A stretch of 32,000 nucleotides of DNA. Origin: Rhodobacter capsulatus SB 1003. Its GTDB lineage: Bacteria; Pseudomonadota; Alphaproteobacteria; Rhodobacterales; Rhodobacteraceae. Made by a program: the position numbers and the translations under genes. The stretch is taken from NCBI RefSeq assembly GCF_000021865.1, contig NC_014034.1, positions 30,001 to 62,000 of the forward strand, written 5' to 3'. Under the pieces are notes generated by a model. That model ran no database searches. It was not told the DNA's origin and saw only the letters and a program-made list of their open reading frames with translations. Below, one piece after another: positions 6,590 through 31,819 of the stretch. Numbering within the stretch: position 1 is the stretch's first letter; the number at the start of each line of letters is the position of its first letter.

Positions 6590-6623
6590 AAAGCAAAAGC
6601 CATCGCATTTTGAATGCGATGGC
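6590..6623 (-). terminator. Rho-independent terminator downstream of secB
   Basis: Perfect 11-bp stem: GCCATCGCATT (6599-6609) pairs with AATGCGATGGC (6613-6623) around a 3-nt loop. On the minus strand it is followed by UUUUGCUUU (complement of 6590-6598). All pairs were checked base by base. Confidence 0.8.
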
Positions 6624-22743: not shown

Positions 22744-24138
22744 TCAGGCGGTGATCGGAACATTCTCGCCCAGCGGCCCGGTTTCGGGGGCGATCAGACG
22801 GCCGATGTGCCAGCGCAGCTCGACCACCGCGCCCGAGCGCCGCGGCACCGGCGCATTCTTCTGATAGGGCTCGGATCCATTGGCGAATCGCAGTTTCGCC
22901 CCGGTGCGTTCCAGAAGCGTCTTGGCGATGAAGAGGCCCAGCCCCATGCCCTCGTATTCCTTGCGCTCGGCCGAGCGGGTCGAGATGAAGGGATCGCCGA
23001 TGCGGTTGAGAACATTGGGCGAATAGCCGCGGCCATCGTCGGTGACGCGCACGATGATGCTGCGGTCGGTCCATTCCGCATCGACCCAGACCGTGGTCTG
23101 CGCGAAATCGACCGCGTTCTGGATCAGGTTGCGCAGCGCATGCACCAGCTCGGGGTAGCGATAGATCGTCGGCTGCCGTTCCGAGCCGCCCTCGCCCGGG
23201 ACAACGTCGAAATAGATCATCTTGCCGCGGTCCAGATGCGGCTCGGCGGCCTCGCGCAGCACGGCCAGCAGCGGCGCCGTGCGCAGATGCACGTCATCCT
23301 TGCCCGCCCGCCCCATCGACCGCAGGATGTCGCGGCAGCGTTCGGCCTGTTCACGGATCAGCACCGCATCGTCGTGCAATTCGGGATCGTCGACCAGCTC
23401 TTCGGCCAGTTCGGTCGAGACCAGCTTGATCGTCGCAAGCGGCGTGCCCAGCTCATGCGCGGCGGCCGCCACCACCCCGCCCAGATCGGTCAGTTTCTGC
23501 TCGCGCGAGAGCGCCATCTGCGTCGCGAAAAGCGCATCCGACATCGAATGGATCTCTTGCGCGATGCGGTGGGCATAGGCGCCCAGGAAGATCACCCCGA
23601 TCACGATCGCCACCCAGGAGCCGAATTCGATCATCGGCGGCACGCCGATATGCGCCCCGTCGCGGGTCTGCAGCGGCTCGTTGAACACGGCGACAAAGGT
23701 GATCATCGCAATCGTCGCGCCCCCCAGCAGCAGCGTCGGCCGCAGCTTCAGCGCCGTCGCGGCGATCGTCACTGGCACCAGGATCAAAAGCGCGAAGGGG
23801 TTGTTCAGCCCGCCCGTCAGCGACAGCAACAGCGCCAGCTGCGCGGTGTCAAAAAGCAGCGTCGCCGTCACCTCGGCCTGCGACAGCCGCCGGGATTCGG
23901 GATAAAGATAGATCGCCGCAATGTTGGCGGCGACCGCAAAGCCGATGGTTCCGATGCACATCGGCAGGTTCAGCGCGATGTCGTAATAGCCGTAAGCGGC
24001 AATCAGCGCCGCCAGCTGACCGACGACCGCGGCCCATCGCAACAGGATCAATGTCCGCAGCCGGACCCATTCCTGATGGCTCAAACTTGCCGACATGTCG
24101 AATTCCGGCCGGTCGACAGCCCTCATCATATCTGCCAT
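22744..24138 (-). CDS. regB: Redox-responding sensor histidine kinase RegB (PrrB)
   Basis: The N-terminal half has multiple TM helices and the conserved quinone-site heptapeptide GGLNNPF. Kinase boxes are the H-box AAAHELGTPLATI, the redox-active Cys context EQAERCRDIL, the N-box LRNLIQNAVDF, G1 VTDDGRGY and G2 GMGLGLFIA. I prefer ATG 24138, which has a GGGAGGGA SD about 7 nt upstream. ATGs at 24129 and 24126 are alternatives. The TTG at 24198 in the track is unlikely. Confidence 0.93.
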   Translation of the reverse strand: MADMMRAVDRPEFDMSASLSHQEWVRLRTLILLRWAAVVGQLAALIAAYGYYDIALNLPMCIGTIGFAVAANIAAIYLYPESRRLSQAEVTATLLFDTAQLALLLSLTGGLNNPFALLILVPVTIAATALKLRPTLLLGGATIAMITFVAVFNEPLQTRDGAHIGVPPMIEFGSWVAIVIGVIFLGAYAHRIAQEIHSMSDALFATQMALSREQKLTDLGGVVAAAAHELGTPLATIKLVSTELAEELVDDPELHDDAVLIREQAERCRDILRSMGRAGKDDVHLRTAPLLAVLREAAEPHLDRGKMIYFDVVPGEGGSERQPTIYRYPELVHALRNLIQNAVDFAQTTVWVDAEWTDRSIIVRVTDDGRGYSPNVLNRIGDPFISTRSAERKEYEGMGLGLFIAKTLLERTGAKLRFANGSEPYQKNAPVPRRSGAVVELRWHIGRLIAPETGPLGENVPITA

Positions 24139-24185
24139 CGTCGTCCCTCCCGCCTCACCCTTACCGCAACCCCTTGATATTCCCG

Positions 24186-24198
24186 TTGCGCTGCGCAA
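24186..24198. promoter_or_regulatory. 6-1-6 palindrome TTGCGCTGCGCAA in the regB/senC divergent control region
   Basis: Seen directly: TTGCGC-T-GCGCAA. It sits about 29 nt upstream of the senC ATG, between a TTGATA hexamer (24174-24179) and the senC SD. The GCGC-rich dyad is reminiscent of RegA/PrrA half-sites, but the spacing differs from the consensus I remember. Confidence 0.4.
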
Positions 24199-24226
24199 TC
24201 AATCTCCAGCACGTGAAGGAGAGGCG

Positions 24227-24892
24227 ATGAACGTTTCGAGCAAGACCGCCGCGCTGGCTGCCACGGCAGCCGTCGTCGTCGTGGTGGGCATCTCTGCCGC
24301 CGTCACCCTCGTCCCCCATGAGACGGATCGCTTTGCCGCCTGCCGCAAGGGCACTGGCAGCGCCTCGGCGCAGATCGGCGGTCCATTCACGCTGATCTCG
24401 GAAACCGGCGCAACCGTGACCGACAGGGACGTGATCACCAAACCGAGCCTTGTCTACTTCGGTTACAGCTATTGCCCCGACGTCTGCCCGATCGACAGCA
24501 CCCGCAATGCCGCCGCGGTCGATCTGCTGGCCGAGCGCGGCCATGACGTGACGCCGGTGTTCATTTCCGTCGATGCCGCGCGGGATACGCCGCCGGTGCT
24601 GACGGAATTCACCGATCTGATGAGCCCGAAGATGATCGGCCTGACCGGCACGCCGGAGCAGATCGATGCGGCGGTCAAGGCCTATCGGGCCTATTACCTG
24701 ATCCGCAATCCCGGCGATCCGGCGACACTGGTCGATCATTCGACCCAGACCTATCTGATGGATCCGAAGCTTGGCTTTCTCGATTTCTATGATCGCGACG
24801 CCACACCGGAAATGGTGGCCGACAGTGTCGGATGCTTCCTGGACGCGCTGCAGACCCCCGGGGATACCCCCGCGGCGGGCAACGGAAATTGA
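24227..24892 (+). CDS. senC: Sco1-family copper chaperone SenC (PrrC)
   Basis: ATG 24227 is preceded by GAAGGAGAGG. The gene encodes 221 aa with an N-terminal membrane anchor (AALAATAAVVVVVGISAAV), the Sco CxxxC motif YSYCPDVCP and the conserved His context LVDHST. It is divergent from regB and upstream of regA, as in the published reg locus. Confidence 0.92.
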   Translation: MNVSSKTAALAATAAVVVVVGISAAVTLVPHETDRFAACRKGTGSASAQIGGPFTLISETGATVTDRDVITKPSLVYFGYSYCPDVCPIDSTRNAAAVDLLAERGHDVTPVFISVDAARDTPPVLTEFTDLMSPKMIGLTGTPEQIDAAVKAYRAYYLIRNPGDPATLVDHSTQTYLMDPKLGFLDFYDRDATPEMVADSVGCFLDALQTPGDTPAAGNGN

Positions 24893-24944
24893 CCAGCGCA
24901 AAATATAGATTTAGAACCGAAAAAGAGGGTGAAAGGGGGGAGCC

Positions 24945-25499
24945 ATGGCCGAAGAAGAATTCGCCGAACTCGGAAGCGACAGGTCGCTGCTTCTGGTCGA
25001 TGACGATAATGCGTTCCTGACCCGCCTTGCGCGCGCGATGGAAAAGCGCGGGTTTCAGACGGAAATCGCCGAAACGGTCTCGGCCGGCAAGGCGATCGTG
25101 CAGAACCGGGCACCGGCCTATGCGGTGATCGACTTGCGTCTGGAAGACGGCAACGGGCTCGAAGTGGTGGAAGCGCTGCGCGAACGCCGCCCCGAGGCGC
25201 GGATCGTCGTTCTGACCGGCTATGGCGCCATTGCCACCGCGGTTGCGGCGGTGAAAATGGGCGCGACGGATTATCTGTCGAAACCGGCCGATGCGAATGA
25301 CATCACCAATGCGCTTCTGGCCAAGGGCGAAGCCCTGCCGCCGCCGCCGGAAAATCCGATGAGCGCCGACCGCGTGCGCTGGGAACATATCCAGCGGGTT
25401 TACGAGCTGTGTGACCGAAATGTGTCGGAAACTGCCCGCAGGCTGAATATGCACCGTCGCACCTTGCAGCGGATTTTGGCCAAACGCAGCCCGCGATAA
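24945..25499 (+). CDS. regA: Global redox response regulator RegA (PrrA)
   Basis: 184 aa. The receiver domain has the phospho-acceptor context YAVIDLRLEDGNG, followed by the PPPPENPMS linker. The invariant Fis-type HTH is NVSETARRLNMHRRTLQRILAKRSPR. The sequence matches my memory of R. capsulatus RegA. Confidence 0.97.
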   Translation: MAEEEFAELGSDRSLLLVDDDNAFLTRLARAMEKRGFQTEIAETVSAGKAIVQNRAPAYAVIDLRLEDGNGLEVVEALRERRPEARIVVLTGYGAIATAVAAVKMGATDYLSKPADANDITNALLAKGEALPPPPENPMSADRVRWEHIQRVYELCDRNVSETARRLNMHRRTLQRILAKRSPR

Positions 25500-25531
25500 A
25501 CAAATATATCTTGATTGCGCGAACATAATAT

Positions 25532-25576
25532 TCGATATCCATGAAACCACTCACTGGAGGTTTTCATGGATATCGA
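25532..25576 (+). promoter_or_regulatory. Perfect 15-bp inverted repeat (stem-loop) spanning the hvrA ribosome binding site and start codon
   Basis: TCGATATCCATGAAA (25532-25546) is the exact reverse complement of TTTCATGGATATCGA (25562-25576). The 15-nt loop CCACTCACTGGAGGT carries the GGAGG SD. The right arm contains ATG 25566-25568. All 15 pairs were checked individually. Confidence 0.7.
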
Positions 25577-25874
25577 CGCGCTTTCACTGAACGAACTCAA
25601 GGCGCTGCGGTCCAAGGTCGACCGCGCAATCGTCACCTACGAAGAGCGCAAGAAAAAGGAAGCCTTTGCCGAACTCGACGAGATCGCGCGCAAGATGGGC
25701 TATCCGCTGGCTGAAATCCTGACCATGGTCGAGACGAAACCGCGCAAGACCGTCGCGGCGAAATATGCGAACCCGGCCAATCCCTCCGAAACCTGGACCG
25801 GCCGCGGCCGCAAGCCGAAATGGGTCGAAGCCGCGCTGGCTTCGGGCAAGTCCCTGGAAGATCTGACGATCTGA
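25566..25874 (+). CDS. hvrA: H-NS-like nucleoid-associated regulator HvrA
   Basis: 102 aa. It has an N-terminal coiled-coil (LSLNELKALRSKVDRAIVTYEERKKKEAFAELDEIA) and a C-terminal H-NS DNA-binding motif (TWTGRGRKPKW). Its position downstream of regA matches the R. capsulatus locus. Confidence 0.9.
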   Translation: MDIDALSLNELKALRSKVDRAIVTYEERKKKEAFAELDEIARKMGYPLAEILTMVETKPRKTVAAKYANPANPSETWTGRGRKPKWVEAALASGKSLEDLTI

Positions 25875-26753
25875 TCAGGCTTCGGCCTTCAACCAGTCGA
25901 TGAATATCTTGGCCGCCGGGTTCAGCCGACCCGGCGGCCTGACAATATAATAGCCCAGGCTTTCCTCGGTCAGCTCGTGGATTTTCACCAGCCAGCCGAG
26001 TTTCAGATCCTCGACGATCAGCGCCTCGGTTTCCAGATGCAGGCCGATGCCTTCACGTGCCGCGGCCAGCGCCAATTCCTCGTTCGGAAAATCGACGAAT
26101 TTCAGCGCTGCCGGAACCAGCCCCATCGATTCCAGCAATTGCATCTGCTCCGGCCAATCGCCTTCTCGCACCCATGGCAGCATCGCCATTTCCCGCAGCG
26201 ATAGTTTTTTTCGCCCGCCAAGCAATTCCGGCGCCGCCACCACAACCTGCGGGGCAGCGGTCAGAAACACCGAAATCACCCCGGGCCATTTTCCGACCCC
26301 GAAACGAATGCCGATATTCGCGCCGATTTCCTTCAGATCGACCAGCCGGGCATCGGGCAAAAGCGACAGCGGAATATCGGGGTGTTTCTTCCAGAACCGC
26401 GCCAGTCGCGGCATCAGCCATTCCGAGGCGAAAACCGGCGGCACCGTCACCGTCAGCGCCTTTTCGCTGGTGTCGGCGCGCAGCATGTCCGCCGCCGACT
26501 GGATCATCGAAAACCCGTCTGCCAGCGCCTTGGCAAAGCGTTCGCCCTCGGGCGTCAGGTGCAGATGCTTGCCGTCGCGCCACACGAGCGGCACGTCCAG
26601 ATCGGCCTCCAGCGCGCGGACTTGTTGCGCTATGGCAGCGTGGGTGACATTCAGCTTGCGGGCCGCCGCGCTGAACCCCCCCTCGCTTGCCGTTGCGGCA
26701 AAGGCGCGCAGGGCTGTCAGCGGCGGCATCTTGCGCCAGTCGATTTCGCTCAT
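25875..26753 (-). CDS. hvrB: LysR-family regulator HvrB
   Basis: 292 aa. It has an N-terminal LysR wHTH (LTALRAFAATASEGGFSAAARKLNVTHAAIAQQVRALE) and a GcvA/AmpR-type effector domain. Its position between hvrA and orf5/ahcY matches the described hvrB. Its stop codon abuts the hvrA stop (TGATCA). Confidence 0.88.
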   Translation of the reverse strand: MSEIDWRKMPPLTALRAFAATASEGGFSAAARKLNVTHAAIAQQVRALEADLDVPLVWRDGKHLHLTPEGERFAKALADGFSMIQSAADMLRADTSEKALTVTVPPVFASEWLMPRLARFWKKHPDIPLSLLPDARLVDLKEIGANIGIRFGVGKWPGVISVFLTAAPQVVVAAPELLGGRKKLSLREMAMLPWVREGDWPEQMQLLESMGLVPAALKFVDFPNEELALAAAREGIGLHLETEALIVEDLKLGWLVKIHELTEESLGYYIVRPPGRLNPAAKIFIDWLKAEA

Positions 26754-26849
26754 CTGTTAGCCTGCCTATCATCTGTGGAAAAATTCCTGACTCGCCTTGC
26801 GGCCCGCGTCAAGGCATTCAGAAGGCACAGAGAGAAAAGGAGATCCGCG

Positions 26850-26942
26850 ATGTTCCGGATTCTTGGAGAAGTGATGGCCCTTGCCATGGGTGGCTATGCC
26901 CCCCGCGCCCGCAACGCTGGCGAATACAAGTTCAACCGCTGA
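26850..26942 (+). CDS. Candidate 30-aa small ORF divergent from hvrB (hypothetical)
   Basis: ATG 26850 is preceded by AAGGAGA (26837-26843) with a 6-nt spacer. It encodes [30 protein letters not shown] and stops at TGA 26940-26942. It is the only part of track ORF 26382-26942 that lies outside hvrB. I recognise no homology, and about 70 percent GC3 by hand count is only moderately coding-like for this genome. Confidence 0.3.
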   Translation: MFRILGEVMALAMGGYAPRARNAGEYKFNR

Positions 26943-27522
26943 GGGACCTCAGAAGCACATGGTGACGCGCGGTAAAGGCTGCGCGCACCTCGGGCGGGGG
27001 ACGCAGGCGGATCGCCAGACCCCGCACAAGGACAGGATCGGGCTTTCCGAAGATCCTGTCCGCCTCGGCCTCTGAAAATCCCGCGATCTGTTCGGCCTCG
27101 AGCCGGGCCGAAACCGTGTCTGCCGCCTTGATCGCGCGTTTGATCGGGGCGGGCAGCACCGCGGGCAGGCCGAAGCGCAGATGCACCGCCGCCGTCAGCC
27201 GGTCATCCAGCTCCACATAGCCCTTGCCGATCGCCGCCTTGACCGGGGTGATCATGTCGCCCAGCACATATTCGGGCGCGTCATGCAACAAGGCCGCCAG
27301 CCGCCAGCGTTCGCCGATGCCGGGATTGGCGCGGGCGAAAAGCTCTTCGACCAGCAGCGAATGTTCCGCCACCGAATAGGCGTAATCCCCCGTCGTCTGG
27401 CCGTTCCAGCGCGCGACAAAGGCCAGCCCATGGGCGATATCCTCGATTTCGATGTCCATCGGCGTCGGGTCGAGCAGATCCAGTCTGCGTCCCGAAAGCA
27501 TCCTCTGCCACGCCCGTTTCAT
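26932..27522 (-). CDS. HD-domain phosphohydrolase (YfbR-like; corresponds to orf5 of the hvrB-ahcY region)
   Basis: 196 aa with the HD-superfamily motifs [10 protein letters not shown] and [28 protein letters not shown] lies 6 nt upstream of ATG 27522. It is divergent from ahcY. Confidence 0.8.
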
Positions 27523-27573: not shown

Positions 27574-27647
27574 TCGCAGGTGCGCTTCGTTGCGCCACGG
27601 GGCTCAAGATGCTATGCAACCACCGACTGAAATTCGAGGAGCGCCCG

Positions 27648-29039
<1,392 letters not shown>

Positions 29040-31792: not shown

Positions 31793-31819
31793 AAACCGCC
31801 CGGCTTCCCGGGCGGTTTT
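31793..31819 (+). terminator. Rho-independent terminator downstream of the secreted-protein gene
   Basis: AAACCGCCCGG (31793-31803) pairs with CCGGGCGGTTT (31808-31818) around a CTTC loop. The stem ends in TTTT. Confidence 0.8.

Follow-up and report, generated by a model that had tools for sequence, protein, structure and literature searches.

The start codon of hvrA, in the regB–senC–regA–hvrA locus of Rhodobacter capsulatus SB 1003, lies within the 3′ arm of a perfect 15-bp hairpin whose 5′ arm coincides with the predicted promoter of hvrA itself. The reading that best fits this arrangement is fold-back inhibition, whereby the plus-strand hairpin would lock the hvrA start on mRNA that reads through from regA, while mRNA from hvrA's own promoter would lack the 5′ arm and be open for translation. 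We hold this reading with evenly balanced confidence. What was computed here is the helix and how stable it is, its preservation through compensatory changes, the promoter motif shared among loci, and the gap in opening energy between the two classes of transcript. Positions refer to the window, the whole 32,000-nucleotide stretch of DNA that was analysed, numbered from its first letter.

As a locus of redox and light regulation the regB–senC–regA–hvrA region is a textbook case, in which hvrA is generally assumed to be merely co-expressed with regA. According to the list of open reading frames, regB lies on the minus strand at about 22744–24198 (its product scores above the curated NCBIfam cutoff for RegB), and senC stands between regB and regA in the listed gene order. 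The response regulator gene regA occupies 24945–25499 on the plus strand (NCBIfam NF033791, ActR/PrrA/RegA, 322 bits against a cutoff of 250) and ends with a TAA stop codon at 25497–25499. It is followed by a spacer at 25500–25565 and by hvrA (25566–25874, plus strand), an open reading frame for an H-NS-family DNA-binding protein of 102 aa. Homologues of HvrA carry the H-NS domain PF00816 and are given the name HvrA by several sources, and the HvrA of the window gives a weak match to the StpA C-terminal domain. The same list places a convergent LysR gene in the position of hvrB (25875–26753, minus strand) and ahcY at 27609–29039 (NCBIfam AhcY, score above the curated cutoff). The spacer is 66 nt long, and 24 of its 66 bases (36%) are G or C by count from the sequence, in line with the roughly one third given in a first-pass annotation of this DNA. 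In windows of 60 nt the G+C fraction is 0.40–0.42 at the spacer, compared with 0.55–0.73 in the flanking coding sequence.

The stop codon of hvrA (25872–25874) abuts that of the LysR gene (25875–25877, minus strand) with no intergenic bases between them, and each transcript must therefore end within the opposite gene. An 11-bp G+C-rich perfect inverted repeat, GGCCGCCGGGT / ACCCGGCGGCC (25911–25921 / 25929–25939, with a loop of 7 nt), lies 37 nt 3′ of the hvrA stop, in the 3′-terminal part of the convergent LysR gene. Neither strand has a T-run after this repeat, which could be where the hvrA transcript ends.

The hairpin is formed by a 5′ arm, TCGATATCCATGAAA (25532–25546), and a 3′ arm, TTTCATGGATATCGA (25562–25576), both on the plus strand and both recovered from the sequence, the repeat finder and the fold. 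The arms lie 15 nt apart and are 100% complementary; inspection of the sequence and the repeat finder agree on all 15 of 15 positions, as first annotated. The 3′ arm contains the last 4 nt of the spacer between the Shine–Dalgarno (SD) sequence and the AUG, the ATG itself (25566–25568), codons 2–3 (GAT ATC) and the GA of codon 4. The hairpin begins 32 nt after the regA stop and covers 34 of the spacer's 66 bases, roughly a half and not the majority claimed initially, together with 11 coding bases. Its arms are the longest perfect inverted repeat of the 32-kb window when loops of 3–40 nt are allowed, and a 15-bp repeat appeared anywhere in the window in 2 of 100 dinucleotide shuffles of the 32 kb. 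A 53-nt segment containing the hairpin folds with a ΔG of −24.7 kcal/mol, compared with −8.4 ± 2.3 kcal/mol for its shuffles (z = −7.1; none of 200 shuffles as good), and in a 141-nt context the value is −49.9 kcal/mol (z = −6.1). Other long perfect inverted repeats in the window are a terminator-like 11-bp repeat, AAACCGCCCGG / CCGGGCGGTTT, with a loop of 4 nt at 31793–31803 / 31808–31818, a 12-bp repeat with a 26-nt loop at 1679–1690 / 1717–1728, and an 11-bp repeat with a 3-nt loop at 6599–6609 / 6613–6623.

Several known classes of element were considered and set aside. The hairpin is not an intrinsic terminator: CGCGCTTTCAC stands directly 3′ of the stem with no U-tract, the stem is AU-rich (5 G–C pairs out of 15) and the terminator scan was negative at this position, all of which bears out the view taken in the first-pass annotation. 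A REP or MITE repeat was rejected because the sequence is single-copy in the window, no second copy with three or fewer mismatches being found in the 32 kb. No Rfam match was obtained at E ≤ 1 over 24000–27000. A 57-aa open reading frame at 25541–25714, which starts from an ATG within the 5′ arm in a different frame from hvrA, is probably no gene, since it has no SD and its ATG is lost in three related loci (L001, L146 and L154).

A stable hairpin without a U-tract, placed in an AU-rich intercistronic region 32 nt past a stop codon, also has the features of a processing or stability element. It might block 3′ exonucleases and so protect senC–regA, or fix the regA:hvrA ratio as an RNase III or RNase E determinant, in the manner of the puf hairpins. 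Such a role would fit both the ΔG and the conservation described below, and is compatible with fold-back inhibition. However, a stabiliser could do its work clear of the next start codon, yet the SD or the AUG falls within the 3′ arm both in the clade of R. capsulatus and in the non-homologous hairpins of other genera. A helix of 15 bp is, moreover, short for RNase III. On this balance a processing role appears distinctly unlikely.

The 15-nt loop (25547–25561, plus strand) contains the SD, GGAGG (25556–25560), and an anti-SD CUC (25550–25552), which together form a weak apical mini-helix. The SD had been described as displayed in the loop; its location was correct, but it is not freely exposed, because in both the minimum-energy and the centroid folds CUC 25550–25552 pairs with GAG 25557–25559 and C25548 with G25560. 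In the fold of the hairpin, the mean unpaired probability of GGAGG is approximately 0.3. The AUG is fully enclosed, with an unpaired probability of 0.00 at every temperature from 20 to 60 °C in silico, and at 60 °C the opening of the region −13 to +13 is still predicted to cost 18 kcal/mol. Forcing either arm to be single-stranded costs 22–24 kcal/mol, and no replacement helix forms. The minimum-energy fold also contains an outer helix of 5 bp between GCGCG 25517–25521 and CGCGC 25577–25581, which is unconserved in the alignment of relatives and was left out of the element. When a wider region is folded, the minimum-energy structure encloses the hairpin by pairing the 3′-terminal part of regA (25461–25492) with hvrA codons 12–18 (25600–25618), an inverted repeat that the repeat finder also lists; this pairing may be a folding artefact.

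These properties bear on the earlier proposal of a translational gate on hvrA within the polycistronic mRNA. The gate itself is favoured by the complete pairing of the AUG, by the compensatory and wobble changes in relatives and by the restriction of such structure to regA-linked hvrA; the triggers suggested for it found no support. An RNA thermometer is rejected, since the stem does not melt below 60–70 °C in silico. Opening by ribosomes terminating at regA is likewise rejected, as the stop codon lies 32 nt before the stem and thus beyond the reach of a terminating ribosome, given its footprint. A riboswitch or attenuator switch is rejected as well, given the lack of a competing fold and the cost of opening either arm.

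The first-pass annotation did not recognise that the 5′ arm corresponds to the predicted −10 box, discriminator and +1 of a conserved hvrA promoter. The alphaproteobacterial promoter consensus is CTTGAC-N17-CTATAT (PMC2873474), to which the window offers CTTGAT-N17-CGATAT with a distance of 17 nt between the −35 and −10 boxes. The predicted −35 box is TTGATT (25511–25516, plus strand; CTTGAT 25510–25515 in the alphaproteobacterial register) and the predicted −10 box is GATATC (25534–25539, plus strand; CGATAT 25533–25538 in that register), which lies within the 5′ arm and does not have the usual T at −12 and −7. From this geometry the +1 of an hvrA-only mRNA on the plus strand is predicted at 25546 ± 2 nt, the last base of the 5′ arm, leaving a 5′ UTR of about 20 nt. 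The 5′ arm thus spans −14 to +1 of the predicted promoter, and the promoter's own mRNA would therefore lack the arm. Consequently, silencing of hvrA by the hairpin would probably occur only on mRNAs reading through from regA, and what had been taken for a gate becomes a putative discriminator between two transcript classes.

The promoter motif extends well beyond R. capsulatus. Within 91 distinct regA–hvrA loci, TTG is concentrated 62 to 55 nt before the hvrA start, with 73 matches compared with about 2 per position elsewhere. A profile anchored on this TTG, cTTG[A/C]-N17-(c)TAwa, is found at 75 of the 91 loci, which span many genera of the Paracoccaceae; the −11 A is present in 53 of the 75 anchored loci, and in these a purine-rich SD follows 46–49 nt past the TTG. 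The layout is that of a predicted σ70-type promoter with a leader of 18–31 nt, and its fixed distance from the start codon across genera suggests that hvrA generally has a promoter of its own. Neither the hairpin nor an hvrA promoter is mentioned in the accessible literature covered by a full-text search on hvrA, a scope that excludes the primary papers of 1994 and 1999.

Conservation of the pairing was assessed in 80 genome loci with the HvrA profile and in 19 loci from close relatives. Of the 80, 77 have regA immediately upstream of hvrA. The capsulatus clade, defined by at least 77% HvrA identity, comprises R. capsulatus strains, R. viridis, R. lacus and uncultured relatives. The same hairpin architecture is found in all 11 distinct sequences of this clade, with ΔG values of −20.9 to −28.9 kcal/mol and z-scores of −2.9 to −7.7. 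RegA of the window matches that of R. capsulatus SP36 (L003) with 100% identity, and the SP36 spacer has three base differences near the regA stop, its promoter and hairpin being identical to those of the window. HvrA of the window is only 86–89% identical to the HvrA of other R. capsulatus strains (25566–25871 compared with P0003 and L003/L147), despite the full identity of RegA (L003) and a spacer that is identical (L147) or differs at the three bases (L003). There are 11 differences from P0003, of which 7 fall in residues 27–56 and the other four are C-terminal (residues 71, 93 and 98).

Compensatory changes in the arms, which the first-pass annotation had suggested looking for by aligning spacers, occur within this clade, although the statistics are modest. 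In L152, L153 and L156, another R. capsulatus strain among these, the upper stem GAAA/TTTC has become GAGA/TCTC and a 16th pair has been gained, while in R. lacus (L001) the top of the stem reads CCA/TGG. At stem position 3, G–C has been replaced by A–U in L001 and L158 (R. lacus), the change on the coding side being synonymous (ATC to ATT). L153 also carries one U·G pair, which would be C·A if read on the minus strand. In L154 and L160 one base of the 5′ arm is lost and 10 + 4 pairs are kept around the resulting bulge, and L146 has a single A·C mismatch in the stem. Overall, 84.9% of alignment cells are paired in the given register, compared with at most 50% in slid registers. In the covariation set of 13 distinct sequences, both partners have changed in 3 pairs. 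Counted by alignment cell there are 6 such double changes, where shuffles give 2.3, and 4 of 500 shuffles reached 6. Other covariation measures on the 13-sequence alignment were not significant, and RNAalifold keeps only the lower 8 pairs when two sequences without the upper stem are included. The sequence evidence for what is probably a selected plus-strand RNA helix is good, and comes from few independent events.

An alternative is that the palindrome acts in DNA, as an operator over the hvrA promoter and start through which HvrA would regulate itself or another dimeric regulator would act. The inverted repeat does overlap the predicted −10 box and +1, and an AT-rich spacer suits the preference of H-NS-type proteins for AT-rich DNA. 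Nevertheless, relatives keep the complementarity and not the sequence of the half-sites, both of which change together to different bases, while the U·G pair works only in plus-strand RNA and bulges are tolerated. The compensatory changes, the plus-strand-only U·G pair and the bulges favour an RNA helix over a protein operator. The centres of the half-sites are, in addition, 30 bp apart, and the single-copy status of the sequence within the 32 kb applies here also. The operator, which had been put forward in the first-pass annotation, is therefore very improbable.

The complementarity could also be a by-product, the GATATC −10 box matching the ATG GAT ATC GAC codons by chance and pairing without function. 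Part of the lower stem does indeed come free once the GATATC −10 box and the GAT ATC codons coexist, because GATATC and CATG are self-complementary, and the repeats of this length in shuffled windows show that such a stem can arise somewhere in 32 kb. Against this, the upper stem GAAA/TTTC, neither half of which is coding or part of the −10 hexamer, changes in a compensatory manner in two lineages, and structured start regions are enriched only in regA-linked hvrA. A functionless pairing is accordingly judged extremely improbable.

The two predicted transcript classes differ strongly in the accessibility of the hvrA start. On RNA starting at 25480, representing read-through, opening of the region −13 to +13 costs 32.4 kcal/mol, whereas with the RNA 5′ end at 25545–25547 the cost is 10–11 kcal/mol. 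Across the family, the opening energy on read-through RNA exceeds that on own-promoter RNA by a mean of 6.2 kcal/mol, compared with 1.3 kcal/mol for the identically truncated regA start (p = 9e-7). When the capsulatus clade is removed the difference is 4.0 kcal/mol (p = 2e-4).

If hvrA transcription began at or upstream of about 25540, its own mRNA would keep at least 7 bp of the stem; a start 6–10 nt above the predicted site would leave 7–10 bp. The hairpin might then lie within the functional hvrA mRNA, as it also would if hvrA were expressed from polycistronic mRNA only, and would serve as a constitutive damper or as a gate opened by a helicase, an sRNA or a protein. Sequestration of the AUG and conservation of the helix apply equally to such an arrangement, and hvrA has been termed ‘transcriptionally coupled’ with regA (PMC5359404). 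However, in 75 of 91 loci the conserved −35/−10 motif would have transcription begin where the 5′ arm ends. The helix is also more stable than a thermometer would allow, and no alternative pairing partner was seen for either arm. Proteins of the H-NS type are usually abundant, and an opening cost of 32 kcal/mol on the sole mRNA fits such abundance poorly. A hairpin retained in the functional mRNA therefore seems unlikely.

Structure at the start codon is a particular feature of hvrA genes linked to regA. Start regions were classed as structured when the segment from −45 to +15 relative to the start codon folded with a z-score below −2. By this measure, counted without correction for kinship, 24 of 91 regA-linked hvrA starts are structured, compared with 1 of 73 regA starts and 0 of 42 H-NS homologues unlinked to regA, this last control consisting of distant H-NS homologues, the sole return of a metagenome scan with the HvrA protein. 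Strong structure is absent in most of the distant relatives. Non-homologous hairpins whose 5′ arm falls on the predicted −10 or +1 are nevertheless found in R. flavimaris L059, in L028 and L079, and in Thioclava L008, L009; the hairpin of R. flavimaris L059 has 15 pairs covering both SD and AUG, and that of Thioclava L008, L009 masks the SD.

The occurrence of structure varies with the length of the regA–hvrA spacer. With kinship ignored, 42% of loci with spacers of 60–80 nt are structured, compared with 12–13% at longer spacers (Spearman 0.44). Conversely, and again with kinship ignored, 5 of 40 loci with spacers of at least 85 nt carry a canonical hairpin-plus-T-run terminator upstream of the promoter. 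In these loci (L012, L021, L022, L006 and L010) the terminator lies between the regA stop and the predicted hvrA −35; that of L021 has a ΔG of −22.7 kcal/mol and is followed by TTTTAAC.

We tentatively suggest, as a possibility that we regard with some doubt, that the promoter DNA comprising the −10 box, discriminator and +1 is under dual selection, serving as a promoter in DNA and also, within read-through RNA, as the complement of the hvrA start, and that this has arisen with unrelated sequences in several short-spacer genera of the Paracoccaceae while long-spacer lineages use a terminator. The arrangement would then be a general, as yet unnamed way to uncouple genes with internal promoters in packed operons.

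Under fold-back inhibition, the proposed sequence of events at hvrA would be as follows. Transcripts from the senC–regA promoters would run through the spacer; no terminator between regA and hvrA was found in the scan of the window, and hvrA is the gene termed ‘transcriptionally coupled’ with regA in PMC5359404. On transcripts begun upstream of 25532 the hairpin would form, locking the hvrA AUG and, in part, the SD in a very stable helix and blocking initiation at hvrA. Transcripts begun at about 25546 from the spacer promoter would be missing the 5′ arm, so that their initiation region would be open and translated. With own-promoter mRNA open and read-through mRNA closed, HvrA synthesis would therefore follow its own promoter, and would be insulated at the level of translation from the redox-regulated transcription of regA. 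Where hvrA transcription starts, whether and how much read-through RNA is made, and how translation responds are inferences.

If this is correct, the level of HvrA would be set by a separate promoter and would be blind to RegA-controlled read-through. This would call for reinterpretation of polar mutations in regA and hvrA, of plasmid constructs (such as ‘RegA* + HvrA’) and of hvrA levels in RNA-seq. The locus would also provide a clean example of one DNA segment doing double duty, as promoter and as an anti-initiation sequence in RNA, and would extend fold-back inhibition from insertion sequences to ordinary chromosomal operons.

The mechanism class is itself known; hvrA would add a new chromosomal case, in which promoter and anti-initiation sequence overlap in an unusual way. 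In fold-back inhibition of IS10, the element's own promoter starts inside or after the pairing segment, and only transcripts entering from outside are silenced; the same principle operates in IS50. PMC13181058 cites Davis, Simons and Kleckner (1985) for the sequestration of IS10 translation signals in secondary structure. As in IS10/Tn10, an upstream segment at hvrA pairs with the initiation region, forming the 15-bp helix in which the AUG has an unpaired probability of 0.00. For hvrA's own transcript, the promoter motif predicts a start at the end of the 5′ arm (+1 at 25546). The differences are that hvrA is a chromosomal regulator within an operon and not a transposase, that its 5′ arm itself constitutes the −10, discriminator and +1 of the internal promoter, and that here the start site and the translational effect are predictions.

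Other systems resemble hvrA in part. In IS200, a stem–loop in the 5′ UTR sequesters the Shine–Dalgarno sequence (PMC4513863). This is likewise a cis-acting mRNA hairpin directed against translation initiation, but it resides in the element's own mRNA and masks the SD, whereas the hvrA hairpin masks the AUG and, by prediction, forms no part of the mRNA made from hvrA's own promoter. RNA thermometers such as ROSE and fourU also occlude the SD or AUG in a helix; theirs, however, are short and imperfect and melt at 30–42 °C, in contrast to the perfect 15-bp stem of hvrA, which stays closed above 60 °C in silico. The puf hairpins of R. capsulatus, located 3′ of pufA, protect the upstream segment from decay. 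They resemble the hvrA element in being stable hairpins, in lying between cistrons of this organism and in having no U-tract, but do not contain the start codon of the next gene. Finally, in the int–sib system of phage lambda, sib takes effect at the 3′ end, by way of RNase III and decay. There too, a structure that is complete in only one of two transcript classes decides the fate of the transcript, while at hvrA the difference between the classes would lie at the 5′ end and its target would be initiation.
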